The notes: a model not told the origin generated them from the sequence alone. A stretch of 64,000 nt of DNA from Candidatus Phycocordibacter aenigmaticus (GCA_045401115.1 CP174359.1:483247-547246), one strand, 5' to 3'; counted from the first letter of the stretch, positions 4,465-59,896 are shown. A program made the numbers and translations.

Positions 4465-4468
4465 AAAA

Positions 4469-5053: not shown

Positions 5054-5078
5054 TTGTCATTGCTAAAAGATTGCTAAC

Positions 5079-5534
5079 TTGACAAATTTGCATTATGTTA
5101 GTATAACATTTTTATATATGAGCTCTGAAAAGTTCACCTCTGCTGCTGAGAGCAGTATGCCAAGATTATGGACAAAGTACGAAGCTCCTGAAAAACGTAT
5201 CGAGCTTATCGTGAAAGGAGAGTGTGTTGGATATGCAATTCTTATATCTCACCAAGAACCGTTTAGGTTCTATTATGTTGATGAAGTTTTTGTCGATAAG
5301 AAAGAGCGGGGGAAATCGTATGGCTCTAAGTTAGTGCGTAAAATAAATTCCTTTTTGGGTAGAAAAAATGCTGCGGGTATCCTTATGAACGCCATACATC
5401 CAGATGATCCTACATATAATTTATATAGTAACTATGGTTGGCAAGAAGTTCCCGAATTTCATGGTTATTATATGTATGGCAGAAAAAACCATCATACAGG
5501 TAAAAAGGTGTGCGAAGCTATAAACAACATATGA
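5079..5534 (+). CDS. GNAT-family N-acetyltransferase (putative)
   Basis: Motif A-like 'VFVDKKERGKSYGSKLV' (R-x-x-G-x-G/S) and size typical of GNATs. Start may be the internal Met (MSSEKF, about 5121). Confidence 0.45.
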   Translation: MTNLHYVSITFLYMSSEKFTSAAESSMPRLWTKYEAPEKRIELIVKGECVGYAILISHQEPFRFYYVDEVFVDKKERGKSYGSKLVRKINSFLGRKNAAGILMNAIHPDDPTYNLYSNYGWQEVPEFHGYYMYGRKNHHTGKKVCEAINNI

Positions 5535-5648
5535 GTTTTGAAAACCCTGACAATACTGACAAGCATATGTGCTCAGATTTTGAAACGATTTGGGAAAGTA
5601 GTGTTGCTCATCAGCGATGTCGTGTGTGCGGTAAACGTTCATAATAGA

Positions 5649-5685
5649 AAATAACTCACCGTAGTGAGTTATTTTTAAAAACACC
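5649..5685 (+). terminator. Rho-independent terminator after the GNAT gene
   Basis: 'AAAATAACTCACCGTAGTGAGTTATTTTTAAAAAC': stem ATAACTCAC/GTGAGTTAT followed by a T-run. Confidence 0.55.
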
Positions 5686-5703
5686 ACGATCAATCGTAGT
5701 GTT

Positions 5704-8700
5704 TTATTTTTGTTTTACTCGTTTTAATTCTCGGCGGTATGAAAGAAGTGGAATAAAAACAAGTGTGAGTACGGTGCCATAAAGAAGTCCAAAGGCGATA
5801 GTGAATGCAAGTGGTGCCCACATGGCATCAACAAAAACGAGTGGAATCATACCAACTACGGTAGTGACGGTAGTTAGAAGAATAGGACGTACACGGCTTT
5901 CGGCGGTATCGAGGACAAGGTCATGAGGGGTAATGTCGGGATTTTCTCGATAACGAGTGTTCATTGCATCCAATAACAAGATTCCGTGATTAATAATCAC
6001 ACCAGCAAGGGCGATAATCCCGAGAAAGGCAGTAAATGAAAGCGGTTGTCCAGTAAGCCAAAGCCCCCAGAGTACGCCGGTAAGTGAAAGGGGAATTGCA
6101 GACAGGAGACGTAATGCTCGTGAGAATGTATTAAACTCAAGTACAAGAATAGCAAACATGAGCACTAACCCCGCTCCAAGTGCAACAAGCATCTCAGTAA
6201 ATGTTTTTTGTATTTCTTCGTCTTCGCCGCCATAGGTAAGATGTACTCCTTCTGGAAGTTCAAGTTGTTCCGCAGCATTACGCACGGCGTTGGTAACCTC
6301 AATAACATTCGCGTTTTCAGTAACATAGCTATGCACTGAACCAATACGCATACCATTTTCATGACTAATAGCGGCGCTGGTACGATCAGCAGTAATGGTA
6401 GTGAGAGAGCCAAGCGGAACAGTTCCTCGTGAGGTTGCAATAGGGATATTTCGTATTTCATCCGCACCGGCAATGGTCGTATCTTCGGGTCCGATAAAGT
6501 TTGGATTGAGGTCAAACATAACTCGCACTTCGAGGTCGTTTCCTTCGATGCGTACTTTAGTTGCTTCAACTCCAGCGACTGCAGCGCGAAGTGTTGAGGC
6601 GATATCAGTGGTTGAGAGACCATATTCATTTGCCGCATCTCGATCAATGCTTATCTGTAACTCCGTACCATCATTAGCAAGTGAAGAAGTAATATCGCGG
6701 GTTCCAGATGTATCCTCGAGCACATTCTCTATCATTTCTGTTGCAAGTGCGAGTTTATCAGTATCATTGCTCCAAATTTTAACTACAATCGGAGCTCCTG
6801 ATGGCGGGCCACCATCAACATCAAACACTGATACATTTGCGTTACCAAAATCAGTCAATGCAATATCCCGACGAAGTTTATCGGTTATTTCAAGGCTTGA
6901 AAGATCACCTCGGTTTTCTTTTAGATTAACCGTAATATTTGCATATTTTGTACCAGCACCAGGACTGTTTTGATTAAATACGCTTGCTGCGCCAACTGTG
7001 GTAGTGAGTGATTCGAGATATGGAATTTCAGATGCAATAGATTCAACATGACGAGCTACCGCATCAGTTTCAGTAAGTGCCGTAGCTTGAGGGAGCTCTA
7101 CTTCTATATAAAAGAGGTTGTAATCAGAAGGAGGGAACATGGCAACCTTAAGCGCACCAGTGACAGGAAGTGCAAGGGCGCCCACGAAAAATATTGCGAG
7201 AACACCATAAAAGAGCCATTGCATGCGGCGGTGGGCGAAAAGCAACTGCATATGTTTTCGGTACCAGGCACTAATAGAGCGCCAAAGACGTTCACGCTTT
7301 ACTGCAAAGGATGATTTTTCATGCTTGATTAAATGGAGCGCGATAGATGGCACGAACCCGAGCGATACAATAATCGAAGCAATAAGCACAACGACGATAG
7401 TAAAAGGAATTGATTTAATAAACTCACCAATGATACCTGAGAGGAAAAATAGGGGAATGAATACTGCTACTGTTGTCATAGTGCCGGCAATTAATGGCCA
7501 TCCGAAATCGCGTATCGCTTTACGAGCTGCAGCGTATCGGTCAAGACCGTTTTCACGATTAGTATGGATGCCTTCAACCACAACAATGCCTGAGTCAACT
7601 AAAATACCGATGGCAATAATAAGTGAAAACAGAGAAATAAAGTTAATAGTATTACCGGTTGCAAACATCCCTAAAAACGCAATCATAAAAGAGAAGGGAA
7701 TTGCCATAGCGGCAACAAGTGCGTCTTTAAAACCAATTGCAATAAAGAGCACTAACATAACCAAGAGCACTGTCTGTAGTCCTGATGTTGAAAGGTCAGT
7801 AATAGATGTTCTTACTTCGTCTGCGGTGTCATAGGTAATAACAGCTGTTGATCCTGTAAGAAGTGTCTCTTCAAGTTCTTTAAGACGGTCCTTAACACGA
7901 TTTGATACTTCGATGATACTGTCACTTGATGATTTATAGATATTAAGAGAGAGTGCAAATTGCGAATCTTTTCCTTCTACTTTAATACGTGATATTGATG
8001 AGGTGTCTTGAAAACCATCGATGATTGTTGCAATATCGGCAACAGTAATTTCACCGGTTGGAGTCGCAATTGGTGTGGTGCGTATGTCTTCAATATCAGT
8101 AATTTTCCCTTCAAATTGAATTGGATAATTCACATCATCTATAGTGATAGTGCCGGCGGGCGCTGATGCATTTGCATTACGAAGTGCGCTTATGACCTGT
8201 TCAACTCGAATATTGTGTTGTGCCAGTGAATTTTTATGGACGATAATAGAAATTTGTCGGGCGCGCGTTCCTGCCACTTCAACTTTTGAAACTCCTTGTA
8301 TAGCAATGAGTTCATCTTGTAAATCTTCTCCGAGCTGTGTGAGAGCCTCAGGAGCAAGATCAGTTCCCACGCCAACCATAAGGATTGGTTGATTTTGAAA
8401 ATCAAATTTAGTTACCGTTGGCACTTCTGCATCTGAAGGAAGTTCAGCACGTGCACCTTCAACTGCATTGCGTAGATCTTGAATTGATGAATCAATGTCG
8501 GCACTTGCCACAAACTGTGCAGTAATAACTGATACACCGGAGCGCGATGATGAAGTTACTTCATCAATATTTGCCACATTACGTATTGATGGTTCAAGTT
8601 TGTCAGTAACGAGTTGCTCAACATCAGATGCGGTTGCTCCAGGAAGTACAGTAGTCACTATACCGATGGGGACGACAACTTCAGGGCTTGATTCTTTTGG

Positions 8701-8799
8701 TATTACATTAAGTGCATATGCCCCGGCAATTAAAAGCGAAATCATCGCTAATACGGTGAACGCGCGTCGTGAAAGAAAGAAGTTCCAGAGTGAATACAT
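5704..8799 (-). CDS. RND-family efflux transporter permease (AcrB/HAE-like, 12 TM with two large periplasmic loops)
   Basis: 1031 aa. N-terminus 'MYSLWNFFLSRRAFTVLAMISLLIAGAYALNVIPKESSPEV' is typical of AcrB. Hydrophobic blocks at about 340-500 and 860-1020 with large loops between them. Confidence 0.85.
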   Translation of the reverse strand: MYSLWNFFLSRRAFTVLAMISLLIAGAYALNVIPKESSPEVVVPIGIVTTVLPGATASDVEQLVTDKLEPSIRNVANIDEVTSSSRSGVSVITAQFVASADIDSSIQDLRNAVEGARAELPSDAEVPTVTKFDFQNQPILMVGVGTDLAPEALTQLGEDLQDELIAIQGVSKVEVAGTRARQISIIVHKNSLAQHNIRVEQVISALRNANASAPAGTITIDDVNYPIQFEGKITDIEDIRTTPIATPTGEITVADIATIIDGFQDTSSISRIKVEGKDSQFALSLNIYKSSSDSIIEVSNRVKDRLKELEETLLTGSTAVITYDTADEVRTSITDLSTSGLQTVLLVMLVLFIAIGFKDALVAAMAIPFSFMIAFLGMFATGNTINFISLFSLIIAIGILVDSGIVVVEGIHTNRENGLDRYAAARKAIRDFGWPLIAGTMTTVAVFIPLFFLSGIIGEFIKSIPFTIVVVLIASIIVSLGFVPSIALHLIKHEKSSFAVKRERLWRSISAWYRKHMQLLFAHRRMQWLFYGVLAIFFVGALALPVTGALKVAMFPPSDYNLFYIEVELPQATALTETDAVARHVESIASEIPYLESLTTTVGAASVFNQNSPGAGTKYANITVNLKENRGDLSSLEITDKLRRDIALTDFGNANVSVFDVDGGPPSGAPIVVKIWSNDTDKLALATEMIENVLEDTSGTRDITSSLANDGTELQISIDRDAANEYGLSTTDIASTLRAAVAGVEATKVRIEGNDLEVRVMFDLNPNFIGPEDTTIAGADEIRNIPIATSRGTVPLGSLTTITADRTSAAISHENGMRIGSVHSYVTENANVIEVTNAVRNAAEQLELPEGVHLTYGGEDEEIQKTFTEMLVALGAGLVLMFAILVLEFNTFSRALRLLSAIPLSLTGVLWGLWLTGQPLSFTAFLGIIALAGVIINHGILLLDAMNTRYRENPDITPHDLVLDTAESRVRPILLTTVTTVVGMIPLVFVDAMWAPLAFTIAFGLLYGTVLTLVFIPLLSYRRELKRVKQK

Positions 8800-8805: not shown

Positions 8806-10161
8806 TTATTTAATGCGTACGGTTTCTCCTGCCTTACGTCCACGTATGTCTGTAACAATAAATTCATCACCAAGGAGCCCATGTACCGTAATACCATGAG
8901 CAACCACAAGTGATGTTTCAACAGGGATTGCTTCAAGAGTGTTGTCGGCGGTAACTACAAATACAAAAGCTCCGGTTGGGGCGTACTTTACACTTGAAAG
9001 TGGGAGTACATAAGTGTCGCTTGAGTTTGTTTGAGCACTTTTGATGCGACACACATCATTTCCTGCAGAGAGTACATCTCCAATTGATGCATTACATGAG
9101 AGAATAGTGCCAGGCACTCCGGCTTGTACGATTGTTTTTTGATACGCAGCAAGCGCAACTTCATATGCTCCCTGTGCTTGCTTCACTGATGCTTGCGCAG
9201 CGGCGAGTTCAGTATTTTCTGCACCCGCCACTCCTTCTTCAAGATTTTGCGTTGCAGTTTCTAATGCTGTACGTGCTGAAGTTATTGCGGAGAGTGTAGA
9301 TGTGAGCGCAGTACGTGCATTTGTCGCCGCTACTTTATAGGATGCAATATCTGCCTCAGTTACCGAACTACTAGTGATGGCTTCGTTAAGTGATGCAATA
9401 AGTGCATCAATAAAAGTACGTGTTTGACGAGTTTCTATTTCAGCACTGTTCAATTCTGCAATGAGATTTGCGCTGGTAGAAATATCAGATGAAACAGTTG
9501 CTTGTCGCGTAAGTACTTGAGTTAGAAAAACGCGCTGGTTTTCAATATTAATACGTCTTTGGTCATTGCTTGTGGTAAGAGATAAATTTGGCGATGTGCT
9601 TTCTGGATTAGAAAACATTTGATCAGCAGTATCGCGAATAGCACTGTCAATAGTTGCGTACGCCGATAAAAGTGTGTTTACTGCGCCACTTTGCGCTCCT
9701 CTGAACGACGCTTCAAGAATAGCAATTTTTTCGGACCGTGGTCCTGATTGAGTTTTTTCAAATGATGCTTCTGCGGCTTCTAACGCGCCTTCTGCTTGAA
9801 GTAGCGCTGCACGTTGTGATGCATTTTCAAATCGAGCTATTGTAGTGCCGCGCGATACACGTGTCCCTGGAGTAAGCACAGAGAGAATTTTCCCGCTCGT
9901 TTCTGCACGTACGATAGTTTCTGAACCGCTATGTACGGTACCTTGTGAGCCCTGAGTATATTCAGAGACAGGAATTAAAGTTACGAGTGGAGATTTTTCA
10001 GTAACAGTGACTTCATCAGTTGCTGTGTTGGGAGCAAAAAACACAAAACCAACACTTGCAATAATAAGTACACTCACTATTCCGGCAACCCATGCGCGTT
10101 TTGTTCCAAGGCCTTTTAAAAATAACCATAATTTTGGCAAAATACTTAAAACATTTTTCAT
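8806..10161 (-). CDS. Efflux RND periplasmic adaptor / membrane fusion protein (HlyD family)
   Basis: N-terminal TM anchor 'WVAGIVSVLIIASVGFVFFAP', a long Ala/Thr/Gln-rich coiled-coil hairpin, and a C-terminal beta-domain. It sits immediately upstream of the RND permease and overlaps it closely. Confidence 0.75.
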   Translation of the reverse strand: MKNVLSILPKLWLFLKGLGTKRAWVAGIVSVLIIASVGFVFFAPNTATDEVTVTEKSPLVTLIPVSEYTQGSQGTVHSGSETIVRAETSGKILSVLTPGTRVSRGTTIARFENASQRAALLQAEGALEAAEASFEKTQSGPRSEKIAILEASFRGAQSGAVNTLLSAYATIDSAIRDTADQMFSNPESTSPNLSLTTSNDQRRINIENQRVFLTQVLTRQATVSSDISTSANLIAELNSAEIETRQTRTFIDALIASLNEAITSSSVTEADIASYKVAATNARTALTSTLSAITSARTALETATQNLEEGVAGAENTELAAAQASVKQAQGAYEVALAAYQKTIVQAGVPGTILSCNASIGDVLSAGNDVCRIKSAQTNSSDTYVLPLSSVKYAPTGAFVFVVTADNTLEAIPVETSLVVAHGITVHGLLGDEFIVTDIRGRKAGETVRIK

Positions 10162-15708: not shown

Positions 15709-16731
15709 ATGAGCACTATAAACTTTAAACCGAAAACAGTAGTAAAGCGCCTTATACAGGTGCTTCCTGAGCGTTCGCGTGATGTTATTACCGCGCGATA
15801 TGCACTCAATGGTCAAAAAAAACCAGAAACACTTGATGCAATCGGAAAACGTTACGGTGTTACTCGTGAACGTGTACGCCAAATTGAAAATCACGCGGTG
15901 AAATTGATTCAGGAATCTGAAGTACTTCTCGCTGAAGCGGAATCATTCGGTGCACTTGAAAACGCTATTCGCGATCTTGGCGGTGTCTTAACTGAAGACA
16001 TGATTATTGATACGCTTGCACAGGATGATGATTCAAAGAATCATCTCTACTTTCTTCTTGTTGTTGGCCACCCCTTTAAGGTAGCAAAGGAAGACAAAGA
16101 TTTAACAAAACGTTGGTATGTCGATGGTGAAATTGCTCAAGCCGTAGAAAGTGCTTTAAAAGAAGTGCATAAAAAAGTTCGTCCGTCTGACGTGCTTTCG
16201 GAAAAAGAATTAGTGACTCATGTGAAAGCCTGTCTTGATCGTGTGAGTGCCAAATATCGTGAAGGCGACACAATTTTACGTTGGTTAGAGTTATCGCGAT
16301 GTCTTGTTCGTAATCCGCTTGGTGAATGGGGTCATGCTTCAGCTCCTGGTATTAAAGTGAAGAATATTCGAGATTATGCATATCTTGCAATGAAACGCCA
16401 AGGTTCTCCAATGCATTTCAGAGAAATTGCAAAAGCAATTAGAGAGCTTTTTGGGAAAAAGGCACATGAAGCAACGACCCATAACGAACTCATTAAAGAT
16501 GATCGCTTCGTTCTGGTTGGGAGAGGAATGTATGCGCTCTCTGAATGGGGATATCGGACTGGACCAGTAGCAGAGATTATCGAACATATTCTGAAAGAAC
16601 ACGGACCTCTTTCAAAAGATGAAGTACTACAAAAAGTAAAAGAGGAACGTTGGGTAAAAGACAATACAGTGTATGTGAATCTACAAAGTCCTCGGTTTGT
16701 AAAAAAAGGAGGTAAGTATTCACTTGCATAA
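15709..16731 (+). CDS. Sigma-70 region-4 HTH fused to a C-terminal HARE-HTH (RNA polymerase delta-subunit-like) domain; putative RNAP-associated/transcription factor
   Basis: N-terminus 'LPERSRDVITARYALNGQKKPETLDAIGKRYGVTRERVRQIENHAVKLI' is a sigma-70 r4 signature. C-terminus 'AYLAMKRQGSPMHFREIAKAI...LIKDDRFVLVGRGMYALSEWGY' matches the HARE-HTH consensus seen in Bacillus RpoE (delta). Confidence 0.55.
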   Translation: MSTINFKPKTVVKRLIQVLPERSRDVITARYALNGQKKPETLDAIGKRYGVTRERVRQIENHAVKLIQESEVLLAEAESFGALENAIRDLGGVLTEDMIIDTLAQDDDSKNHLYFLLVVGHPFKVAKEDKDLTKRWYVDGEIAQAVESALKEVHKKVRPSDVLSEKELVTHVKACLDRVSAKYREGDTILRWLELSRCLVRNPLGEWGHASAPGIKVKNIRDYAYLAMKRQGSPMHFREIAKAIRELFGKKAHEATTHNELIKDDRFVLVGRGMYALSEWGYRTGPVAEIIEHILKEHGPLSKDEVLQKVKEERWVKDNTVYVNLQSPRFVKKGGKYSLA

Positions 16732-16812: not shown

Positions 16813-18060
16813 TTGATGCTACTATTTGAGGTAGAGAATATGTTTTGGCGTATTGGAATTATTTCGCTTGTCTTAGTGATACCGTTTAGTATTTGGCTTG
16901 CACCAGGTTTTGTTGCCGTGGCAACAGAGTGGGTAGTATTCTTTGCTCCACTTTGGTTACCACCGCTTTTACTTATCATTACCATACCGCTTTGGCTTAC
17001 TTATGTGCGTTCACAGTATGCATACCATATCCCATATACAGTTCTTGAACTAAAGCCTGGCGATAAAACACTGGAAACTGCACACGCAATGGAGCTTGTA
17101 TTATATTCACTCCATCGACGCACTGAACTGTCTCGGATTAAAGCTTTTTTACTTGGTGAATTTCGTGTGCCATGGAGTTTTGAAATTACCGCTACTGCGG
17201 GAACAGTACGTTTTTTTATGCGTATTCCTCGTGCGCATCGGCAGGCGCTTGAAATGCGAATTCGTTCCGAATATAAAGATATTGATATTGATGAAATTCG
17301 TGATTATGCACGTGTCACACACTTTGACGCAACAACTATGAAATTAAGTGCCCGTGAGTATGCGCTTACACAATCTGATCCGTATCCCTTGAAAACATAT
17401 GATATGTATACTCCCGACAACCATAAAAAAGATATCCCGCCTTTTTATGATCTTACTAAACAACTTCTTTCGGTAGGGGAACAAGAGTATCTATACATAT
17501 CGTATACAGTCCGTCCGCACCAATTAACAGAAAAAGCCTTTTGGCGACAAGAATCCGACACGCTGCACCGCGATGCGCAATTCGAGATTACTAAACTACT
17601 TGGTGCCGGGGGTGATATACGTTCGGCCAATGAACGAGTGCAAAAACAAGTTGCTGCAATCGAGACTGCACTTAAAAAGCCAGCATTTGATTGTGGCATC
17701 CGTGCACTCTATTTTGCCGATAAGACACGTTTTAATGATAGTCGAGTTCAAACGCTTGATACATTATTCGATGCTTTTAATGACACTGAGTTAAACAGTT
17801 TAGTTGCGCATAATCCGCGTGAATATATCACATGGCCACTTTCTGACATATTTAATGCAGTACCTTTTTTATACGAAAATTATATGCATTACCTTTACCG
17901 CAGACGTGCTTTTTTCGCACCACCACATTATGGAAAAACATTTGTTTTAAATACCGCTGAGTTGGCAACACTTTATCATGTACCGCAAATGCGACGTGCA
18001 AACACGCTTTCGCACGCGAGCGGTAAACGCCTTGAGCCGCCTGAAAATTTACCTGTATGA
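16813..18060 (+). CDS. Hypothetical membrane protein (two N-terminal TM helices plus about 330-aa soluble domain)
   Basis: TM segments 'IGIISLVLVIPFSIWLA' and 'VVFFAPLWLPPLLLIITIPLWL'. No Walker motifs and no recognisable family. Translationally coupled to mltG (ATGA overlap). Confidence 0.4.
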   Translation: MMLLFEVENMFWRIGIISLVLVIPFSIWLAPGFVAVATEWVVFFAPLWLPPLLLIITIPLWLTYVRSQYAYHIPYTVLELKPGDKTLETAHAMELVLYSLHRRTELSRIKAFLLGEFRVPWSFEITATAGTVRFFMRIPRAHRQALEMRIRSEYKDIDIDEIRDYARVTHFDATTMKLSAREYALTQSDPYPLKTYDMYTPDNHKKDIPPFYDLTKQLLSVGEQEYLYISYTVRPHQLTEKAFWRQESDTLHRDAQFEITKLLGAGGDIRSANERVQKQVAAIETALKKPAFDCGIRALYFADKTRFNDSRVQTLDTLFDAFNDTELNSLVAHNPREYITWPLSDIFNAVPFLYENYMHYLYRRRAFFAPPHYGKTFVLNTAELATLYHVPQMRRANTLSHASGKRLEPPENLPV

Positions 18061-19028
18061 GGAAAGAACTATTAACAAAAAAAACTAAATTTTATATAAA
18101 ACTATTTGGTTTTTTAGGTTTTTTTATGTCACTGGTTTTTTATGCGGGGTTTATAAAGCCACCACTTGAGTTTCCTGTTGAGCACTACAGTGTCGTTGAA
18201 GAAGGTGCGTCAGTACGTAGTGTCGCAAACGCACTTGAAAATGAAAACATTATTCGCTCATCATTCTTTTTTACCATTCTCGTACAATTATTTGGTGACA
18301 GCAACGGAGTGCGATCCGGAGTGTATCACTTTGATACACCGTCACATATTTTTCAAGTAGTTACTCGTTTAAACCAAGGTGTTTTTGGTGAGGATGTGTT
18401 TGTACGAGTCACCATTCCTGAAGGGGCGACGGTTATTGATATCGCGGTTATCTTATCGGAAACAATACCTGATTTTAACGTGGAGCAGTTTACAGAACTT
18501 GCAAAAGAGCATGAAGGATATCTTTTTCCTGATACATATCTTTTTGCTCCTGGCGCAAGTGCGGAAGCAGTGATTGCAGCAATGCGAGATAATTTTGATA
18601 CTAAAATAGAAACCATTTCAGAAAAAATTAGTGTGTTTGGAAAACCGCTGGGAGAGGTGGTGATTATGGCATCTCTGTTAGAAAAAGAAGCACGACAATT
18701 TAAAACCATGCAAATTGTTGCAGGTATTTTATGGAATCGTATTTCCATTGGTATGCCCCTTCAGGTTGATGCAGTATTTGGTTATATTTTTAATACCAAA
18801 ACATTTAGTCCTACATTTGATCAACTAGAAACAGATTCTCCGTATAATACGTATTTATATACAGGGCTACCTCCGGGACCAATTGCAAATCCCGGCTTAG
18901 CAGCATTAGAGGCAGCAGTTACGCCTCAAGACGTGCCGTATTTGTACTACCTGACTGGTAGTGACGGCACAATGCATTATGCAGAGACGTTTGAGAAACA
19001 TAAAGCAAACCGGCGTTTCTTACGATAA
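18057..19028 (+). CDS. mltG: Endolytic murein transglycosylase MltG (YceG family)
   Basis: N-terminal TM, then the YceG-like domain with the conserved C-terminal block 'YNTYLYTGLPPGPIANPGLAALEAA...YLYYL'. Confidence 0.75.
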   Translation: MRKELLTKKTKFYIKLFGFLGFFMSLVFYAGFIKPPLEFPVEHYSVVEEGASVRSVANALENENIIRSSFFFTILVQLFGDSNGVRSGVYHFDTPSHIFQVVTRLNQGVFGEDVFVRVTIPEGATVIDIAVILSETIPDFNVEQFTELAKEHEGYLFPDTYLFAPGASAEAVIAAMRDNFDTKIETISEKISVFGKPLGEVVIMASLLEKEARQFKTMQIVAGILWNRISIGMPLQVDAVFGYIFNTKTFSPTFDQLETDSPYNTYLYTGLPPGPIANPGLAALEAAVTPQDVPYLYYLTGSDGTMHYAETFEKHKANRRFLR

Positions 19029-23948: not shown

Positions 23949-25916
23949 TTACCAAATCTCAGCACGATCCTTGGGGTGGCGATAGAGCGCATCACTTTCT
24001 TTTACGTCAAATGCTTCATAGAAACTGGTTAAGTTTGAGGCGGGGCCGTTCATGCGGAATTTCGCAGGGGAGTGTGGGTCTACCATAAGAAGCATGCGTG
24101 CAAGTTCCGGGCGTGCCTGCCTCACTTCAAACGTAGCGAGGCCAATAAAGAGTCGCTGTTCAGGAGAAAAACCGTGTATTTTTTCTCGAGCCCCACCTTT
24201 TTCAAGGTGTCTTTGATATGCGTCATACGCGATAGCAAGTCCACCAAGGTCAGCAATGTTCTCGCCAAGTGTTAGTTTTCCATTCACTGGAAGATCGTTG
24301 ACTTTATAGGCGTTGAATTGCCGCACTAACACTTGAGCGCGTTTGTTGAATTGTTTTAAATCTTCTTTACGCCACCAATTTTTATAATTTCCTTTTCCGT
24401 CAAATTTAGCGCCTGAGTCATCAAAACCGTGGGTGAGTTCATGCCCAATAACTGACCCTATAGCGCCGTAGTTAATAGCATCATCACCTTCAGCATCAAA
24501 GAATGGTGGCTGCAAGATGCCAGCAGGGAATACAATCTCGTTGTTGTTTGGGTCATAGTAGGCGTTCACTGTTTGTGGTGGCATGAACCATTCTTTTTTA
24601 TCAACCCTTTTCCCTAATTTTTGGTAATTCTTTTTTTGTTCAAACGCAACCGCGCGCGATACGTTTTCATAAAATGTATCTGGTTTTATAGTGAGTGACG
24701 TATATGAACGCCACACATCAGGGTAGCCCAGTTTACAACGTATCTGTGAGAGCTTGGTGAGTGCTTTCTTTTTTGTGGTTTGTGACATCCACGTAACCGC
24801 TGAGATGCGTTCTTTATAGGCGGCGAGTATATCAGTAACCATAAGACCCACTTTCTTTTTCGCTTCCGGTGGAAAATGTTTCTTTATATACTTTTTACCA
24901 ACCACTTCGCCAATATAGGCATTAAGTGTACTGGTTACACGCTTCCATAGTGGGCGGATGGACTCACTTCCAGAGAGTGTTTTGCCGTGAAAATCAAATG
25001 CGCAGTCGATATACTTCTTTGAGAGCAATGGCGCTGCGTCATCGAGGGCGCTAAAGTACAGATAAGTCTTCCATGTGCTCAACGAAATCGTCTTTAAAAG
25101 AGCATTGAGTTTTTCAAAAAAGGCAGGTTGGTAGACAATAAGCGATGTGACTTTTTTATCTACGCCAAGTGTTTTGAAATACTGATCCCAATTTATATCT
25201 GAAGCAAGACGTTTAAGTGCAGCACGTGTTTTTTTGTTATATATCTTTTCAATGTCGCGAGTATCGGTACGAGACATGCTTGCGCGGGCAATTCTTGTTT
25301 CAAGTGCTAAGATTTTCCAGGCACTTTTGTTTGCTTCATCTTTAGGGGTTCCAGCGAGGGTGAGCATACGCTCTATATACGAAACGAACGCATCCTTAAT
25401 GCGCACTGACTGCGCATCTTTTTTAAGGTAGTAGTCTCGATCAGGAAGGGTTAACCCGCCTTGGGTAAGATGAAAAATATAGCTCTCAGCATCTTTATCG
25501 TCTTGTCCCACGAAGTTGCCCCAAAGATAGTGAGCGCCCTTTTTATGTTCTTCAGCGATGAATTGGAGTAAGTCTTCAGTACTTTTAATAGCGTCAATTT
25601 TCTTAAAAACAGGAAGGAGTGGGGTAATGCCACGTTGGTTACGTGTGTGCATGTCCATGCCTGAAAGATAAAAATCACGAATCAGCTGGGTGTCTGATCC
25701 TTTTTTGGCGCGTGTTTTGGTAACAGTCTCTTTTAAAATTGCATGAATTTCTTTAGTCACCTGATCGCGTAGCGCGTCAAAAGCCCCCCACTGACTCTCA
25801 CTTTTAGGTATGGGATTTTTCTTAAGCCAGCCGCCAACAGCGAAATGAAAAAAATCATCTTGCGGGCGTACTGAGGTATCAAGGTTTGATGGACTAAAGC
25901 TAGGTTTTGATTTCAT
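23949..25916 (-). CDS. M13-family zinc metallopeptidase (PepO / neprilysin-like endopeptidase)
   Basis: 'VIGHELTHGFDD' (HExxH) and 'GENIADLGGLAIAYDAY' (the E-x-I-A-D third zinc-ligand motif); size 655 aa. Confidence 0.8.
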   Translation of the reverse strand: MKSKPSFSPSNLDTSVRPQDDFFHFAVGGWLKKNPIPKSESQWGAFDALRDQVTKEIHAILKETVTKTRAKKGSDTQLIRDFYLSGMDMHTRNQRGITPLLPVFKKIDAIKSTEDLLQFIAEEHKKGAHYLWGNFVGQDDKDAESYIFHLTQGGLTLPDRDYYLKKDAQSVRIKDAFVSYIERMLTLAGTPKDEANKSAWKILALETRIARASMSRTDTRDIEKIYNKKTRAALKRLASDINWDQYFKTLGVDKKVTSLIVYQPAFFEKLNALLKTISLSTWKTYLYFSALDDAAPLLSKKYIDCAFDFHGKTLSGSESIRPLWKRVTSTLNAYIGEVVGKKYIKKHFPPEAKKKVGLMVTDILAAYKERISAVTWMSQTTKKKALTKLSQIRCKLGYPDVWRSYTSLTIKPDTFYENVSRAVAFEQKKNYQKLGKRVDKKEWFMPPQTVNAYYDPNNNEIVFPAGILQPPFFDAEGDDAINYGAIGSVIGHELTHGFDDSGAKFDGKGNYKNWWRKEDLKQFNKRAQVLVRQFNAYKVNDLPVNGKLTLGENIADLGGLAIAYDAYQRHLEKGGAREKIHGFSPEQRLFIGLATFEVRQARPELARMLLMVDPHSPAKFRMNGPASNLTSFYEAFDVKESDALYRHPKDRAEIW

Positions 25917-26028
25917 GCGCGTATATCTTAGGTATTCGTATAAGGGCAGTATACCGTTATCATGGTTTCTCTGTCACGTTGCTATTACCAAAAGAAAATA
26001 TTCTTGGTACGATAGGGCTATGACCGTC

Positions 26029-27885
26029 GCAGAAATACGACAAGCGTATCTGGATTATTTTAAAGATCGAGGACACGTAGTGGTGCCATCGGCAAAAATC
26101 GTACCGGAGAATGATCCTACGACACTTTTTACTGGAAGCGGTATGCAACCGATGCTCCCATATTTTCTCGGAGAACCTCATCCACAGGGAGTTCGTGTAG
26201 CCGATGTGCAAAAATGTTTTCGCGCCGGAGATATTGAAGAGGTAGGTGATAACCGCCACACCACTTTTTTTGAAATGCTTGGTAATTGGTCGTTTGGTGA
26301 CTATTTTAAGAAGGAACAGGTTCCCTGGGCTTTTACGTTCTTAACTGAGGTATTAAAACTTGATCCACGTCGTTTATATTTTACTTGTTATAAAGGCAAT
26401 GACGCACTTGGTATTCCTCGTGATACAGAAGCTGCAACCTTGTGGCAAAAATTGTACGAAGCATTAGACATTCCTGCAGGTATTGCTGAAAACCCCGAAG
26501 GTGACGGTATACGTGAAGGTGAACGTATTTTTTATTATGACGATACAAAAAACTGGTGGAGTCGTGTAGGAGAGCCTAAGAATATGCCGGAAGGTGAACC
26601 AGGCGGTCCGGACACTGAGATGTTCTTTGATTTTGGTGACCATGGACAGCATATGAATAGCCAGTGGCGAGACCTCCCATGTCACGTTAATTGTGACTGT
26701 GGGAGATTTGTAGAAATTGGTAACAACGTATTTATGGAATACGTTAAAACAAAAAATGGTTTTGAGAAATTACCAAAACCAAATGTTGATTTTGGTGCGG
26801 GTCTTGAGCGTATTACGATGGCAGTAAAAGATGTCGATGATATTTTTATGATCGACACGATGCAACTTCTGATTCGTGAACTTGCTGCAGTAAGCGGTAA
26901 GGATTACGGTGATCATGAGTACCAAAAATCATTTCGTGTAGTGGCCGACCATATCCGTGGAGCTACTTTTATGATTGCCGACGGAGTATTTCCCGGAAAC
27001 ACTGACCAAAGTTATGTACTTCGTCGTTTAATTCGTCGCAGTATTCGCCATCTCGATACACTTAGTGTGGACGCGGGTACGTTAACACTTCTTGCCGATA
27101 GAGTGGTTACTGCATATCGCGATCAGTATCCTGAACTTGATGCGAATCGTCTTAAGATTCAGGAAATTCTTCGTGAAGAAGAAATTAAATTTAGAAAAAC
27201 ACTCTCACAAGGTATTCGTGAGTTTGATAAATGGACTAAAGAAGGGGCATTGAGCGGTAAAGATGCGTTTATACTTTTTTCAACATACGGTTTTCCATTT
27301 GAGCTTACTCAAGAGTTGGCTGATGAACGCGGTATTGTAATTGATCAAGACGAATTTGAAAGAGAAATGGAACAACACCGTAAACAGTCACGTGCGGGCG
27401 CTGGACAAAAATTTAAAGGTGGACTTGCTGACTCAAGTGAAGCGACAACAAAATTACACACCGCAACACACTTGTTGCTTGCAGGACTAAGAAAAGAATT
27501 AGGAAATCATGTACATCAGGCAGGTTCAAATATTACCGCTGAGCGTACTCGCTTTGACTTTACTCATGATGAAAAGGTGACGCGAGAAACCCTTGATGCA
27601 GTTGAAGCATATGTGAATGAAGCAATACAAAAAGGGATTGAAGTGGTAGTTGAACAGATGGATAAAAATGAGGCTCAAAAGATGGGTGTTGAGGGGAGTT
27701 TTTGGGATCGATACCCTGATGTGGTGAATGTCTATAATATTATTACTCCTGATGGAGTGGTGTATTCTCGTGAGCTTTGTGGTGGTCCGCACGTACAAAA
27801 TACTCAAAATATGGGGACTTTTAAAATAATAAAAGAAGAAGCGAGTGCAGCTGGAGTGCGACGCATTAAAGCGGTACTTGAATAA
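26029..27885 (+). CDS. alaS: Alanyl-tRNA synthetase, compact form (catalytic, tRNA-recognition and editing domains; no C-Ala domain)
   Basis: N-terminus '[44 protein letters not shown]'. Editing-domain '[11 protein letters not shown]' (HxxxH) and 'CGGPHV'. Ends about 618 aa after the real start at 26029; the ORF-track start at 25915 is an upstream in-frame extension. Confidence 0.85.
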   Translation, partial: [618 protein letters not shown]

Positions 27886-27887: not shown

Positions 27888-29006
27888 ATGAAAAAAAATA
27901 ATCCACATAACACACTCATTATTGATATTGGAACCGCATCGCTTGCTGGAGCTGTGATAACGCCTCTAAAAGAAGGGGGAGTACATATGCGTTCGGTTCG
28001 TCGTATGACTATTGGTTCCGGTGATGCGCATACACGCGAAGCACTTCAAACACAGACACTAAGTTCTTTTAAGGATTTATTAAATCAATATCATACTGAA
28101 TCAGTAAAAAAAGTAGTCATTGTAGTGGCAGCACCATGGCATGAAGCGCATATACGCACATTACATTCATCAACAAAGAAGACCGCAACAATTACCGAAG
28201 AAACGCTGAAAAAGGCGGTGCGTCGCTATCAAAATGAAGTGCCACCAAAAGAGGGCTCGGTGGATGTTGAGGCAGTTGCCATGCAAGTTACCGTAAATGG
28301 GTATCCTACAAATTTAGAAAAATCAGTATTAGGAAACAATATTGCCATCAATCTTTATGAGAGTGAGATGCATAAAAAAACTCAACAAGATTTTATCGAT
28401 GCGGTGCATGCCACGATTCCTGATGTTCCGGTAGATTTTAATACATTTCCACTTGTTTCTTTGGTGGCGCTTCGTCTCCTCCTTGAGGATCAGACATTTA
28501 TCGTTGCTGATGTTGCAGGTGAAGCTACTGAGGTTTCCGTTATGCAAAATGATCAGTTGCAGTATTTCGCTTCGTTCCCAATTGGTGTTCGCACTATTGC
28601 ACGGGATATTGCGGGAAGTGACGGTGCAATAAACGATACTCTTTCTCGTTTGGCTCTTTTAGGTCGCGGGGAACTATCTTCTGAAGAAAATGAAAATATT
28701 ACTGAATCTTATGCTGATGCATTTACTCAATGGCGTGTTGCGTTTGACGAGGTGCTTCAGGCAGCGGCAGAACAAACACCAATACCCTATACACTCGTAT
28801 TACTTGCTGATAAAGAACCAATGAGTTGGTTTCAAAAAGGTTTTGCATTACAGAATACATTTAATCTACACATGCATCCGGTTGAGCCAAGTTTATTTCA
28901 ATCAAGTATTGAACTTGGTGATGAATCGCGATATGACATATTCCTCTCACTTATTGCATTATTTGTGCAGGCTGAAAAAACTGAATTAATTGGTGATACG
29001 TACTAG
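27888..29006 (+). CDS. Hypothetical actin-fold (ASKHA) ATPase-like protein, FtsA/PilM/ParM-like
   Basis: Phosphate-1-like 'LIIDIGTASLAGAV' near the N-terminus and phosphate-2-like 'FIVADVAGEATEVSV' about 200 aa later, the spacing seen in FtsA/PilM/MreB. No closer family match by eye. Confidence 0.35.
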   Translation: MKKNNPHNTLIIDIGTASLAGAVITPLKEGGVHMRSVRRMTIGSGDAHTREALQTQTLSSFKDLLNQYHTESVKKVVIVVAAPWHEAHIRTLHSSTKKTATITEETLKKAVRRYQNEVPPKEGSVDVEAVAMQVTVNGYPTNLEKSVLGNNIAINLYESEMHKKTQQDFIDAVHATIPDVPVDFNTFPLVSLVALRLLLEDQTFIVADVAGEATEVSVMQNDQLQYFASFPIGVRTIARDIAGSDGAINDTLSRLALLGRGELSSEENENITESYADAFTQWRVAFDEVLQAAAEQTPIPYTLVLLADKEPMSWFQKGFALQNTFNLHMHPVEPSLFQSSIELGDESRYDIFLSLIALFVQAEKTELIGDTY

Positions 29007-29092
29007 AAGTTCGTTGGTTTACATTTTATAAACATACACAGTTCACAGTATTCACTGTGAGGAATATAATTGAGAGGGTATACTAAAAGATA

Positions 29093-30373
29093 ATGACAAA
29101 CAAACGAAGTATCCAAGATATTATTCCACCCGCACGATCAAAACCGGTGCGTGCAAGCATAACAACTCATTCTAAAAAAGAATCCGAATCCGACAATACA
29201 GATATGAAAGATGTAAAACAACCACCAAAACTCAGAGCTAAAAATAAGCGACCTTCGTTCGGTATCTTCAGTGTGATTATTGTTATTTTATTGATAATTG
29301 GAATAGTTTTTGGTGTGGTAAGTACCGTTTTCCATCGGGCTAATGTCACAATCGCTCTTAAAACGTATTCAATTGCTGTTTCAGAGTCATTTACCGCAAC
29401 TCCTAATGACCTATTGTTCCCGTATACATCACGTACACTTTCTGAAGAGGGAGAAAAGATGGTGCCGCGTTCAGGGACTGAAGATGTTGAGAAACGAGCA
29501 ACAGGAACCATCACTATATTCAATAAATTTAGTTCCTCAAGCCAACGGTTAATTGCCAATACAAGGTTTGCTGCTCCAGATGGTCGCATCTACCGGATTC
29601 AAGATCCAGTAGTGGTTCCTGGATACACCACAAGTAATGGCGAGGTTACTCCCGGAACACTTGATGTTGTGGTGCGCGCTGAAGAGCCGGGAGAAGAATA
29701 CAATAAAAGTAATATAACGTTCACTATTCCTGGTCTTAAAGGTACTGACCAGTATGAAGATATGTATGCAGAAACCAAGACGGCACTCTCAGGAGGTTTT
29801 GTGGGTACCCAAGCAATTGTGTCACCTGAAGTACGAGATGCCGCAATCGCTGAACTCCGTTCTGAACTTGATCGGACACTCCGAGCTCGCTTTACTGAAG
29901 AGCTTGGTCCTGATGAATTGTTTTTCCCCGATACGATCGACGTTACTTTTATCGAACAACCAGATAGCACTGTGGACGACGGGGCGTTGGTGACATTACG
30001 CGCCGAAGCTACAGCGCCTATTTTCAATCAACACAACGTTGCGCAAGCTATTGCTGATACTGGAGGTGTGCGGTATGAAAACCCAATGCGGATAGAGAAT
30101 ATTAACGAATTAACTATCTTAGTAAAAGAAGAACCTGAAAGCGCAGCAATTGAACTCACTGTATCAGGAGACGTAGTTCTCGTTGGGGACTACAATAAAG
30201 AGCAATTATTGCAGGACCTTGCAGGGCAAGATCGTCGTAATATTGGCACAGTGCTCTCTGGCTATCCAGCTATTTCTGATATGACAATTTCAGTATATCC
30301 TTTCTGGCGTGGTATGCTGCCTCAGCAAGAGAAAAATCTAAAAATAGAGGTAGTCCCAGAAGAAGAACTGTAG
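29093..30373 (+). CDS. Hypothetical bitopic membrane protein (Lys-rich cytoplasmic N-terminus, one TM, about 330-aa extracytoplasmic domain)
   Basis: 'KRPSFGIFSVIIVILLIIGIVFGVV' is a single TM, followed by a large domain without recognisable motifs. Co-oriented with 27888-29006, 86-nt gap. Confidence 0.35.
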   Translation: MTNKRSIQDIIPPARSKPVRASITTHSKKESESDNTDMKDVKQPPKLRAKNKRPSFGIFSVIIVILLIIGIVFGVVSTVFHRANVTIALKTYSIAVSESFTATPNDLLFPYTSRTLSEEGEKMVPRSGTEDVEKRATGTITIFNKFSSSSQRLIANTRFAAPDGRIYRIQDPVVVPGYTTSNGEVTPGTLDVVVRAEEPGEEYNKSNITFTIPGLKGTDQYEDMYAETKTALSGGFVGTQAIVSPEVRDAAIAELRSELDRTLRARFTEELGPDELFFPDTIDVTFIEQPDSTVDDGALVTLRAEATAPIFNQHNVAQAIADTGGVRYENPMRIENINELTILVKEEPESAAIELTVSGDVVLVGDYNKEQLLQDLAGQDRRNIGTVLSGYPAISDMTISVYPFWRGMLPQQEKNLKIEVVPEEEL

Positions 30374-30422: not shown

Positions 30423-30451
30423 TTGACTCTTTAGTGCTTTTTTTGTTATTC
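30423..30451 (+). promoter_or_regulatory. Candidate promoter of the infA / ribosomal operon
   Basis: TTGACT at 30423-30428 with a weak -10-like TTATTC/TATTCT 17-18 nt downstream. Weak evidence. Confidence 0.2.
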
Positions 30452-30482
30452 TATCGAAGCCGTATAGCAATCCAAATAAACG

Positions 30483-30698
30483 ATGTCAGAAACGCAAGGA
30501 AAAGATGAAACTATGGGAACTGTCATTGAGGCGCTCCCCAACACACTTTTCCGCGTGCAGCTTGAGGATGGTAAAGAATTGCTTGCGTATCTGGCAGGGA
30601 AAATGCGTCTTCACCGGATTAAAGTTTTGGTCGGAGATCGTGTGACCCTTATTGAGGATCCATACGGAGGACGAGCGCGTATTACGCGTCGTCATTAA
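30483..30698 (+). CDS. infA: Translation initiation factor IF-1
   Basis: S1-like 'GTVIEALPNTLFRVQLEDGKELLAYLAGKMRLHRIKVLVGDRVTLIEDPYGGRARI'. Confidence 0.9.
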   Translation: MSETQGKDETMGTVIEALPNTLFRVQLEDGKELLAYLAGKMRLHRIKVLVGDRVTLIEDPYGGRARITRRH

Positions 30699-30704: not shown

Positions 30705-30821
30705 ATGAAAGTACAATCATCGGTAAAAAAACAGCAACCAGGCGATAAGTTAGTTCGTCGTAAGGGGCGTGTATACCGTATTAATAAATTAAATCCACGC
30801 CGAAAGGCGCGACAAGGCTAA
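30705..30821 (+). CDS. rpmJ: 50S ribosomal protein L36, cysteine-less (zinc-independent 'C-' type)
   Basis: Not in the ORF track (38 aa). Hand-translated as [38 protein letters not shown], aligning to the canonical [37 protein letters not shown] with all four Zn ligands (C11, C14, C27, H32) replaced. Its TAA overlaps the rpsM ATG (TAATG). Confidence 0.8.
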
Positions 30822-32297: not shown

Positions 32298-32978
32298 ATG
32301 GACTATTCTATTCAACTACCATCAAAGCCACGTATTGTCTCTGAAAAAGATAATTCTGGTGTTTACGAAATTGACGGCCTTTATCCCGGATATGGGCATA
32401 CACTAGGGAATTCCCTTCGCCGGATTATCCTTTCATCTATTCCTGGAGGCGCTATAACAACAGTCAAGATTGACGGCGTTCCTCATGAATTTTCAACTAT
32501 CACTGGTGTTAAAGAAGATGTTATTGCGTTAATTCTTAACCTTAAAAAGGTGCGTGTTTCCATTTCAGATGGAGAAGAATATACAATTTCATTGTCATCA
32601 AAAGGAGTTACAACGGTCACAGCGGGCGATCTTGTGTGTCCCGGGCAGGTTGAAATTCTTAATCCTGAACAGCACATCGCGGAACTTACTGATAAAAGTG
32701 CACAACTGACTGCTGAACTCACTGTTCGCAGTGGACTTGGTTATGTACCTAAGGAAGTGATTCAGAAAGACCGAGTTGATGTTGGTGTCATTGCGCTTGA
32801 CTCAGTCTTTACGCCTATTCGTCGGGTTACCTACGAAGTAGAAAATATGCGTGTTGGTGATCGAACTGATTTTAATCGACTTCGTGTGTCAATTGAAACT
32901 GACGGTACTCTTTCTCCACGTGAAGCGCTTGAGCGTTCGATTACGATTATGATTCAACAACTCAAGACTGCTGAGTAA
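32298..32978 (+). CDS. rpoA: DNA-directed RNA polymerase alpha subunit, N-terminal (dimerisation/assembly) domain only; no alpha-CTD
   Basis: 'PGYGHTLGNSLRRIILSSIPGGAITTVKIDGVPHEFSTITGVKEDV' is an alpha-NTD signature. The ORF ends at 226 aa, where the NTD normally ends, and rplQ follows 14 nt later, leaving no room for a linker or CTD. Confidence 0.85.
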   Translation: MDYSIQLPSKPRIVSEKDNSGVYEIDGLYPGYGHTLGNSLRRIILSSIPGGAITTVKIDGVPHEFSTITGVKEDVIALILNLKKVRVSISDGEEYTISLSSKGVTTVTAGDLVCPGQVEILNPEQHIAELTDKSAQLTAELTVRSGLGYVPKEVIQKDRVDVGVIALDSVFTPIRRVTYEVENMRVGDRTDFNRLRVSIETDGTLSPREALERSITIMIQQLKTAE

Positions 32979-32992: not shown

Positions 32993-33346
32993 ATGAAACA
33001 TCATAAAAGTAATCGTAGTTTTGGACGAAAACGTGATCAACGTATCGCGTTGGTGCGTTCGCTTGCCGAGAGTCTTATTTTGACTGAAAAGATGCTTACT
33101 ACTGAAGCACGAGCAAAAGAGGTGCGTCCATTCGTTGAAAAACTTATTACTAACGGTAAGAAAGAGACACTTGCAGCGCGTCGAGATATTCTTTCAAAAC
33201 TTGGTGGTCGTGAACGTGCGGCAAAAAAGGTTGTTGATGAACTCAGCCCACGTTTTAAAGAACGCGCAGGTGGATACACTCGTATTACAAAAGTTCATAC
33301 TAAAAGCTCTGACGGACGTTCGAGTGCTGTAATTGAGTTCGTATAA
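32993..33346 (+). CDS. rplQ: 50S ribosomal protein L17
   Basis: 'MKHHKSNRSFGRKRDQRIALVRSLAESLILTEKMLTTEARAKEVRPFVEKLIT'. Confidence 0.95.
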   Translation: MKHHKSNRSFGRKRDQRIALVRSLAESLILTEKMLTTEARAKEVRPFVEKLITNGKKETLAARRDILSKLGGRERAAKKVVDELSPRFKERAGGYTRITKVHTKSSDGRSSAVIEFV

Positions 33347-58120: not shown

Positions 58121-58237
58121 TAAGTATTGCATTTTTAATAAAACATTGTGTAATACATATACACAATAATAACGGGGGAGTTCACTATAATGACTTTTTT
58201 ACGTTTAAATGAAAGAGTAACCATAATATAAAAAACT

Positions 58238-58486
58238 ATGAAAATACTACACATGATCGCGTTTACGCTTGTTATCATCGGTGGAATTAATTGGGGTCTT
58301 TTAGCGCTGACTAATTGGGAAATTGGTTCATTATTTGGCGGTATGGACGCATTAATTTCACAAATTATTTATATCCTTGTTGGCGCTTCGGCAATTTATC
58401 TCGCAGTAATGCATAAAAAAGAGTGCAGGAATTGTTCGGCGACCACAGATAAAAATGCTGATATACCACATGACATAGGTACCTAG
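58238..58486 (+). CDS. DUF378-family small membrane protein
   Basis: 'LVIIGGINWGLLAL...ISQIIYILVGASAIY' (the GINWGL signature). Confidence 0.6.
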   Translation: MKILHMIAFTLVIIGGINWGLLALTNWEIGSLFGGMDALISQIIYILVGASAIYLAVMHKKECRNCSATTDKNADIPHDIGT

Positions 58487-58690
58487 GTACCGGGGTTACT
58501 GTATAAATCGCTTAAAATGCGGCATATGCGGCATTTTAAGTACTATATAACCAACAACTAAGAAAGAGGTAGTTTAACCTGTAATGATAAAAAGAGTTTA
58601 ATAAAAACTTATTTTATTTATCACAAAAAAGAAAGAAAGAGCCAGTGTATATATTGGACCTTAGTAACATACGTACATAAGGTAAAGACG

Positions 58691-59845: not shown

Positions 59846-59896
59846 TGTTGTTCAGAATGGTATACTGATACGTAGTTATTCATTTAATTACTACAT

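Follow-up and report, generated by a model that had tools for sequence, protein, structure and literature searches.

An alaS-linked gene pair of Patescibacteria encoding a predicted FtsA/PilM-class actin-fold protein and a membrane protein with a baseplate-like ectodomain

FtsN and PilN are bitopic membrane proteins whose roughly 30-residue N-terminal cytoplasmic tails bind the cleft between subdomains IA and IC of FtsA and PilM, respectively (PMC7613929), and the title of PDB entry 5eou, 'PilM:PilN1-12', indicates that twelve PilN residues suffice. A pair of genes that invites the same comparison lies between alaS and infA in a 64,000-nucleotide stretch of DNA from Candidatus Phycocordibacter aenigmaticus (GCA_045401115.1 CP174359.1:483247-547246), referred to here as the window. 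The two genes are P1 (27888-29006, plus strand, 372 amino acids (aa)) and P2 (29093-30373, plus strand, 426 aa), each with an ATG start in the open reading frame (ORF) scan of the window. Both ORFs had been reported by a sequence-only reading of the window and are present exactly where it placed them; given the many homologs of each, they are genuine genes rather than chance ORFs. Together they would constitute a two-protein membrane-spanning module, linked to alaS across Patescibacteria, in which a cytoplasmic actin fold of the FtsA family is combined with a bitopic partner. No description of the pair, nor of any membrane-anchored Baseplate-J-like cellular protein partnered with an actin fold, was found in the literature searched. 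The candidate phyla radiation (CPR), or Patescibacteria, to which this ultra-small bacterium belongs, makes up a large share of bacterial diversity, is mostly uncultured, and its cell biology is almost unknown. P1-P2 is one of its few conserved 'hypothetical' modules with a concrete and testable architecture, comprising an FtsA-class protein, a tail peptide, a transmembrane helix and a baseplate-like ectodomain.

Folds, motifs and topology of the two proteins

The AlphaFold2 model of P1, built from an alignment of 38 homologs, has a pLDDT of 90.9 and a pTM of 0.90. When it was compared with the PDB by Foldseek, 814 chains matched at E<=1e-3, and all of the 50 best were actin-fold (ASKHA) proteins. 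P1 superposes over essentially its full length, about 390 columns, on FtsA (3wt0, 4a2a, 1e4f, 7q6i; E down to 9e-19, TM-score 0.64-0.70) and on PilM (5eoy, 2ych, 3jc8; TM-score 0.60-0.72), whereas Ppx/GppA proteins reach 0.35-0.40, and Ppx/GppA and sugar kinases together only 0.30-0.40. The model further contains an insert at residues 86-162 (28143-28373, plus strand), at the position of the 1C (SHS2) subdomain of FtsA and PilM, with the DSSP order strand 86-102, helix 104-117, strand 124-136 and strand 147-162. Strand-helix-strand-strand is the SHS2 topology of that subdomain, which lies in lobe I and stands there instead of 1B. Because of the full-length superposition and the SHS2-topology insert, P1 almost certainly belongs, on its predicted structure, to the FtsA/PilM class of actin folds. 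The sequence-only reading had proposed an actin-like protein and had named the lack of an ASKHA fold as the outcome that would overturn the proposal; an ASKHA fold of the FtsA/PilM class is what the model and the Foldseek search returned. The relationship is faint at the level of sequence. The profile of the 38 homologs aligned to FtsA in the PDB over residues 7-242 at an E of about 0.015, and P1 scores 14 bits against TIGR01174 (ftsA; cut-off 175.85) and 13.1 bits against PF14450 (FtsA; cut-off 31.8). The Pfam scan gave no match of P1 to SHS2_FTSA (PF02491) or to PilM_2, and its scores fall below the PilM thresholds (TIGR01175/PF11104). A search of 1.84 billion cluster representatives with a hidden Markov model (HMM) of the family returned 2,833 matches at E<=1e-3 and 2,109 at E<=1e-10, mostly full-length proteins of 370-410 aa, and the members sampled are Patescibacteria 'hypothetical proteins' without an above-threshold Pfam family.

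Conservation within this family was counted in an hmmalign alignment of 181 diverse members. The phosphate-1 motif occupies residues 12-19, IDIGTASL (27921-27944, plus strand; consensus D-[IV]-G-S-x-S-V), with D13 kept in 163/179 and G15 in 160/180. The phosphate-2 motif, defined by conservation and alignments, occupies residues 207-216, ADVAGEATEV (28506-28535, plus strand), and follows the pattern D208-x-x-G211-E212-x-T214-[DE], with E212 in 177, D208 in 169, G211 in 162 and T214 in 160 of the 181. It aligns to VVDIGGGTMDVAV of FtsA and to FIDIGGGTTDIAVV of the FtsA-like 'type A' proteins that hold the P1 slot in other lineages (the P1 form being type B), and places Glu212 at the third Gly of the canonical DIGGGT. 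The adenosine motif is degenerate: an hhalign column match to ILLCGGGSAL of type A puts its position at residues 303-312, LVLLADKEPM (28794-28823, plus strand), where the canonical LLCGGGS is absent and [AS]-D-x-[DE] stands in for the usual GG(G/S), in a segment that is variable among distant type-B proteins. W84, just ahead of the insert, is invariant (181/181), and other conserved positions are E128, N137-G-Y139, F-P231-x-G233...R239, W282, P300 and D350. At the C-terminus the last core helix spans residues 351-366 of 372 and no amphipathic segment follows; the best 11-residue segment of the P1 tail has a hydrophobic moment (muH) of 0.37 and a net charge of 0, against 0.63-1.03 and +2 to +4 in type A. 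Given the degenerate adenosine pocket and the rapid drift of the sequence, P1 is more likely a nucleotide-degenerate adaptor or scaffold than an ATP-driven filament, and its ATPase activity has probably been lost. The two phosphate-binding-like motifs of the sequence-only reading are real and conserved across the family. The name 'ATPase' that accompanied them is not supported, since the adenosine GGG is absent and the third phosphate-2 Gly is a near-invariant Glu, whereas other CPR counterparts keep canonical motifs; the comparison with cytomotive proteins of the ParM or MamK type likewise found no support.

The AlphaFold2 model of P2 (pLDDT 90.2) consists of a disordered region at residues 1-52, a helix at residues 56-79 (29258-29329, plus strand), which is the single predicted transmembrane helix, and a beta-rich ectodomain of 345 residues (82-426). 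Column composition shows a variable Pro-rich linker and a basic stretch, KLRAKNKR, ahead of the helix. Since this basic stretch precedes the helix, the positive-inside rule indicates a bitopic protein with a cytoplasmic N-terminus, much as the earlier description had it (basic cytoplasmic tail, one transmembrane helix, large external domain). Within the ectodomain, residues 135-225 (29495-29767, plus strand) form a beta-barrel domain of the GlxA/Baseplate-J barrel type, identified by Pfam PF21110 at 30.3 bits (cut-off 27) and also matched by 82 of 105 homologs; the P2 profile finds GlxA (4unm/5lqi) in the PDB at residues 130-215. Foldseek matched the whole ectodomain, along roughly 350 columns, to the baseplate wedge proteins of cyanophage A-1(L) and of phages Pa193, Mu, phi812 and XM1 (probability 1.0, E 2e-6 to 1e-5), which belong to the Baseplate J class of T4 gp6 and Mu gp47, and also to 'Baseplate J-like' models of BFVD. 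The Pfam family Baseplate J (PF04865) itself is matched, weakly, by 2 of the 105 homologs.

The most striking part of P2 lies at the other end. Residues 4-20, KRSIQDIIPPARSKPVR (29102-29152, plus strand), are proposed on their conservation to be a P1-docking motif. Over the 105 homologs, whose mean column identity is 31%, this N-terminal cytoplasmic peptide (RSIQDIIPPARSKPIR) shows 85-97% column conservation and the pattern [RK]-R-S-I-Q-D-I-I-P-P-A-R-S-K-P-I-R, and its core, phi-x-D-[IV]-[IV]-P, is kept at the extreme N-terminus in most, not all, distant type-B lineages. When P2 is modelled alone, this stretch comes out at low pLDDT and so as disordered. With so conserved a tail peptide on the membrane partner, the analogy with PilM-PilN and FtsA-FtsN that the sequence-only reading had drawn is an apt one.

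Conservation of the pair and its two forms

The pair was followed through 19 related loci, comprising 6 GTDB representative genomes and 13 metagenomic contigs, with about 10 kb readable around each. A P1-type gene stands directly upstream of a P2 homolog in 18 of the 19; pairing was checked with the family HMMs in L001-L015 and in L007, L016, L018 and L019, and L017 duplicates L016. In all 17 loci that reach far enough alaS lies upstream of the pair, in L018 and L019 with one small opposite-strand gene between. Downstream, infA-rpmJ-rpsM... follows in 15 loci (including the truncated L004), and in L007, L018 and L019 the pair is followed by ruvX and/or yceG(mltG), then by LysM-CHAP or LysM-M23 hydrolases and obg. 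Because alaS is constant upstream and the downstream neighbour varies, the pair is tied to alaS rather than the ribosomal operon. Contrary to what had been supposed, it did not take the place of secY-adk-map: in this lineage the alaS-P1-P2 unit is just followed by the infA operon, and in other CPR lineages ruvX-mltG stands after it instead of infA. The arrangement alaS-P1-P2-infA is standard in this part of Patescibacteria rather than peculiar to this genome. The Firmicutes have ruvX and mltG after alaS, and the arrangement in the type-A loci looks like that operon with the pair inserted.

Four of the loci (L007, L016, L018, L019) carry in the P1 slot a 415-420-aa type-A protein that is far more readily recognized as FtsA-like. 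Type A scores 62.7 bits against Pfam FtsA, over the cut-off of 31.8, and 117.5 bits against TIGR01174 ftsA, below the equivalog cut-off of 175.85, compared with 40.9 bits against pilM; its nearest solved structure, by profile against the PDB, is FtsA (E 5e-17). It keeps the canonical FIDIGGGTTDI and LLCGGGS and ends in a conserved cationic amphipathic helix, ...ILRKVVRIMQT. At least 8,000 candidates were scored for this family, all at E<=1e-5; identity among the best 120 matches is 64-88%, members are found in CPR2, Torokbacteria and Parcubacteria, and their database names conflict (FtsA, FtsA domain-containing, rod shape-determining protein/MreB, PilM). The P2 partners of type A are true homologs of the window P2 (E 1e-35 to 1e-87 against the P2 profile) but longer, at 543-610 aa, and carry in all four loci an extra conserved cytoplasmic N-terminal domain of about 80 aa, IYLE.DEEITS...LLQSIVNLKLLK...VT.D..GR.LA, for which no match was found in Pfam or among PDB sequences. 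In L016, a metagenome-assembled genome (MAG) of the Parcubacteria group, type A even sits in the wider synteny of the window, HARE-HTH/sigma-r4 ... mnmA ... alaS-X-P2-infA-rpsM, where X is the P1 slot.

The characters of the two proteins change together. All four type-A loci combine DIGGGT, LLCGGGS and the C-terminal helix with a long P2 that has the N-terminal domain and its transmembrane helix at 174-226; all 11 type-B loci, the window included, combine the phosphate-2 Glu, no conserved adenosine motif and no C-terminal helix with a short-tailed P2 whose transmembrane helix lies at 41-105. The rate of evolution shifts as well: among the actin-like proteins the median pairwise identity comes to 66% within type A but drops to 25% within type B, whereas for P2 the two values are 31% and 34%. 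Given this adjacency and correlated change, P1 and P2 are very likely coupled in function, and the co-conservation that the sequence-only reading had anticipated is borne out. On the simplest reading type B, the form in the window, would be a derived and rapidly evolving ortholog of type A by position, and type A appears to be ancestral. Judging from the sequences, the module is CPR-wide and only its derived type-B form is clade-specific; the label 'lineage-specific' therefore holds for the form and fails for the module.

A tail-docking model and the alternatives

The following sequence of events would account for the two forms. In type B, P1 would have lost its amphipathic helix and its adenosine and phosphate-2 glycines as P2 exchanged a folded N-terminal domain for a short peptide. 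P1 would then no longer reach the membrane alone, and docking of the P2 tail would be its sole remaining route, as it is for PilM. By analogy with FtsN and PilN, the likeliest docking site for the peptide would be the 1A-1C cleft of P1, and W84 may take part in binding; that the tail docks on P1 at all is a proposition towards which the balance tips slightly. P1 itself would act, largely independently of nucleotide, as an adaptor or scaffold linking a partner or state in the cytoplasm with the external domain of P2. The process involved would most likely be cell division or peptidoglycan remodelling, a tentative assignment held at a little short of even confidence, which is suggested by the mltG, ruvX and peptidoglycan hydrolase neighbours in the type-A loci together with the FtsA-like ancestry. 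Baseplate wedge proteins oligomerise in phage baseplates, and since the ectodomain resembles them P2 may form an extracytoplasmic assembly, which is speculation by analogy. The model as a whole, including a derived, ATPase-degenerate and tail-docking P1, is modestly favoured.

Several observations weigh against it. The two types are taken as orthologs on position, and their sequences are only weakly similar, the hhalign comparison of the P1 family with a type-A protein giving a probability of 94.6% and an E of 7e-8 over 211 columns. One locus, L008, reads alaS-P2-infA (3671-7202) with no P1 on its 11.5-kb contig, and yet its P2 keeps FDDIIPPSRRK; the P1 gene of this genome may sit at a different place, or the tail may serve a different partner. 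Around the pair, none of the 19 loci has ftsZ, ftsQ or pil genes, so that the assignment to division or the wall draws on mltG and hydrolase neighbours in only a subset of them. The global TM-score of P2 against the baseplate wedges is only about 0.2 despite the high Foldseek probability, which suggests to us, on the model, shared domain types that are arranged differently relative to one another. Finally, D13, G15, D208, G211 and T214 are still about 90% conserved in the P1 family, and some binding of a phosphate or nucleotide ligand by P1 may for that reason persist.

The most serious alternative is that P1 is simply the organism's own FtsA, the membrane tether of FtsZ, diverged beyond recognition, with P2 as a CPR-specific late-divisome partner analogous in function to FtsN or FtsQ/DivIB. 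FtsA chains are the best structural matches of P1, mltG and peptidoglycan hydrolases are among the neighbours, and the type-A protein of the same slot exceeds the Pfam FtsA cut-off, has FtsA as its nearest solved structure, carries the amphipathic helix and is labelled 'cell division protein FtsA' by JGI. Nevertheless, P1 falls far below both FtsA cut-offs, has neither the membrane-targeting helix nor the ATP-site glycines, and in none of the 19 loci stands beside ftsZ or ftsQ; type A, too, remains under the equivalog cut-off and is named inconsistently (FtsA, MreB, PilM). Annotated ftsA transcripts are reported from MAGs of ultra-small groundwater prokaryotes, Paceibacteria included (PMC9938205), and might belong to a separate canonical ftsA, but that annotation could refer to type A itself. 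This alternative is accordingly held to be improbable. Less probable again, the pair might serve a type IV pilus, competence or secretion machine as a divergent inner-membrane platform of the PilM-PilN kind. In favour of this, PilM chains rank among the top structural matches (2ych, at a target-normalized TM-score of 0.72; 5eou; 3jc8), P1 resembles PilM in having no amphipathic helix, and one type-A member is entered at NCBI as 'pilus assembly protein PilM'. PilN carries an INLLP motif, which the phi-x-D-I-I-P-P-x-R of the P2 tail resembles in position and chemistry. On the other hand, the 19 neighbourhoods contain no pilB, pilC, pilO, pilQ or pilin genes, a single one of 38 P1 homologs matches PilM_2 (E 0.003), P2 has no PilN match in Pfam and a Baseplate-J-like, multi-domain beta structure for an ectodomain, and type A is nearer to ftsA than to pilM.

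Two further readings were considered. P1 might be an ASKHA enzyme, a phosphatase of the Ppx/GppA type or a kinase, with P2 an unrelated neighbour: its best Pfam match is Ppx-GppA (PF02541), at 26.3 bits just under the cut-off of 27, which 14 of 38 homologs also match; its phosphate-1 DIGSxS is Ppx/GppA-like, and E212 and E128, both conserved, are possible catalytic residues. That match covers only about 65 residues around phosphate-2 (197-263), the TM-scores to Ppx/GppA are poor beside those to FtsA and PilM, the SHS2-type insert is a hallmark of the latter, and both the adjacency of P1 and P2 and their correlated change speak against independence; the enzyme was rejected on fold and is very unlikely. 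Alternatively, P2, and P1 with it, could be what is left of a prophage, a tailocin or a contractile injection system, as the many phage wedge proteins matched by Foldseek and the few weak Pfam Baseplate_J matches might suggest. There are, however, no other phage or tail genes nearby, the pair stands between housekeeping genes in the same place across deeply diverged CPR lineages, P2 has an N-terminal transmembrane anchor and only a low global TM-score to the wedges, and the GC content of the region, 0.41-0.42, is the same as that of the flanks. This origin was rejected on gene context and GC content and deserves hardly any credence.

The implications depend on what type A is. Should type A be the CPR FtsA, P2 would be an unrecognised core divisome partner; should it be a paralog, the CPR would possess an extra actin-based envelope system. 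Either way the scale is considerable, with at least 2,100 clusters at 50% identity in the P1-type family and at least 8,000 type-A candidates under conflicting database names. The passage from type A to type B would also be a clean natural experiment, in which an actin-fold ATPase becomes a nucleotide-independent adaptor and its membrane attachment is changed. In its boldest form, which we regard as doubtful, the proposal is of a phylum-wide envelope machine in which an FtsA-family actin is hard-wired to a membrane-anchored baseplate-wedge-like protein, perhaps forming an extracellular ring or platform for division or host attachment; in a large Paceibacteria clade the actin partner would have become a fast-evolving pseudo-ATPase with its own helix swapped for tail docking, a natural FtsA-to-PilM-like transition.

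Genomic surroundings and comparison with known systems

Upstream of the pair, alaS (25915-27885, plus strand) was identified by Pfam tRNA-synt_2c, at 417 bits, and tRNA_SAD. The gap from its stop to the P1 ATG is 2 nucleotides (nt), and because the junction is this short co-transcription of alaS and P1 is suggested. The alaS gene is a short form, with catalytic and SAD domains and without the C-Ala domain. Its true start is probably the Met at residue 36, about 26020, because the Pfam match begins at residue 40; the first 35 codons of the ORF would then probably be untranslated, leaving about 100 nt of divergent promoter region facing a minus-strand M13 peptidase gene. Downstream of P2 the order is infA (30483-30698, from Pfam), rpmJ (30705-30821, read from the sequence), rpsM, rpsK, rpsD, rpoA and rplQ. 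Two sigma-70-like promoter matches fall in the spacers. One in the 86-nt P1-P2 spacer (29042-29070, plus strand; TTCACA-17-TATAAT, 11/12) is a possible internal promoter for P2, a lead only. The other, in the 109-nt P2-infA spacer (30423-30452, plus strand; TTGACT-18-TATTCT with a TG extension), precedes infA and suggests, again as a lead only, that infA-rpmJ-rpsM... is a transcription unit apart from alaS-P1-P2. In the promoter and terminator scan the total of promoter-like sites over the region was not above the shuffled expectation. Among 30 further large ORFs of the window scanned with Pfam were mraY, ftsW, murG, yceG and several aminoacyl-tRNA synthetase genes, and none of secY, adk, map, ftsA, ftsZ or the pil genes; ftsZ and ftsQ were not found within the 64-kb window, and a search across it for paralogs of P1 or P2 found none.

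Other features of the window are of separate interest. Its RpoA (32298-32978) has only 226 aa, made up of the N-terminal and insert domains, and rplQ (32993-33346) starts 15 nt after the rpoA stop, leaving no alpha-CTD (the C-terminal domain). In the relatives whose rpoA call is complete (L008, L009, L011, L013, L015 and L016) RpoA has about 320 aa with PF03118 RNA_pol_A_CTD, and L001-L003, L005 and L006 retain an extension of about 290-370 nt ahead of rplQ; tblastn with the C-terminal tail of the L001 RpoA found no alpha-CTD copy elsewhere in the window. Towards the end, at about 58000-64000, the GC skew changes sign, the coding strand passes from plus to minus near 58-60 kb, GC dips to 0.365, and a tyrosine recombinase gene (Phage_integrase with a SAM-like N domain) lies at 58835-59845; this could be a replication terminus/dif region with XerC/D, or a mobile element. 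The protein of 15709-16731 combines Sigma70_r4 with HARE-HTH, and the end of the next ORF (16813-18060, 415 aa, no Pfam match) runs 4 nt into yceG/mltG (18057-19028); the HARE-HTH protein recurs in L016, where a DUF8128 protein comes after it. Pfam gave nothing at E<=1e-5 for two minus-strand ORFs, 8806-10161 (451 aa) and 60358-61095 (245 aa). The first of them comes immediately downstream, on the same strand, of an AcrB-family RND transporter gene (5704-8799), of which it may encode the membrane-fusion or outer partner.

Set beside the described systems, the pair combines features of several. With FtsA-FtsN it shares the FtsA fold of P1, including the 1C-type insert, type-A counterparts that are FtsA-like in sequence and end in the amphipathic helix, and a bitopic partner with a short conserved N-terminal tail, the part of FtsN that binds the IA-IC cleft of FtsA (PMC7613929). 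It differs from that system in that P1 has no amphipathic helix, no adenosine GGG, no phosphate-2 GGGT and no ftsZ or ftsQ linkage, and lies far under the FtsA HMM cut-offs, and in that P2 has a Baseplate-J-like ectodomain in place of a SPOR domain and a tail unrelated in sequence to that of FtsN. PilM-PilN is similar in that PilM too is an FtsA-class fold without a membrane helix of its own; what recruits PilM is a peptide at the very N-terminus of its bitopic partner (2ych; 5eou). PilM, however, has kept its ATP site, unlike P1 with its degenerate adenosine site, the P2 ectodomain bears no relation to the coiled-coil/ferredoxin-like domain of PilN, and P1 has no pil genes nearby and stays below the Pfam and TIGRFAM PilM thresholds. 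The wedge proteins resemble P2 through the alignment of its ectodomain, and Streptomyces GlxA through a barrel domain that exceeds the PF21110 cut-off; unlike a baseplate wedge, P2 is anchored by a transmembrane helix in a housekeeping context without tail, sheath or spike genes, and its domains are differently oriented, as the low global TM-score implies. The pair may also be compared with the type-A pair with its long P2, which occupies the same alaS-X-P2 slot, precedes the same downstream operon in L016, has a homologous P2 and shows a weak but detectable relationship to P1, and which differs in the ATP motifs, amphipathic helix and slow evolution of its actin-like protein (about 418 aa) and in the extra domain of about 80 aa on its P2.

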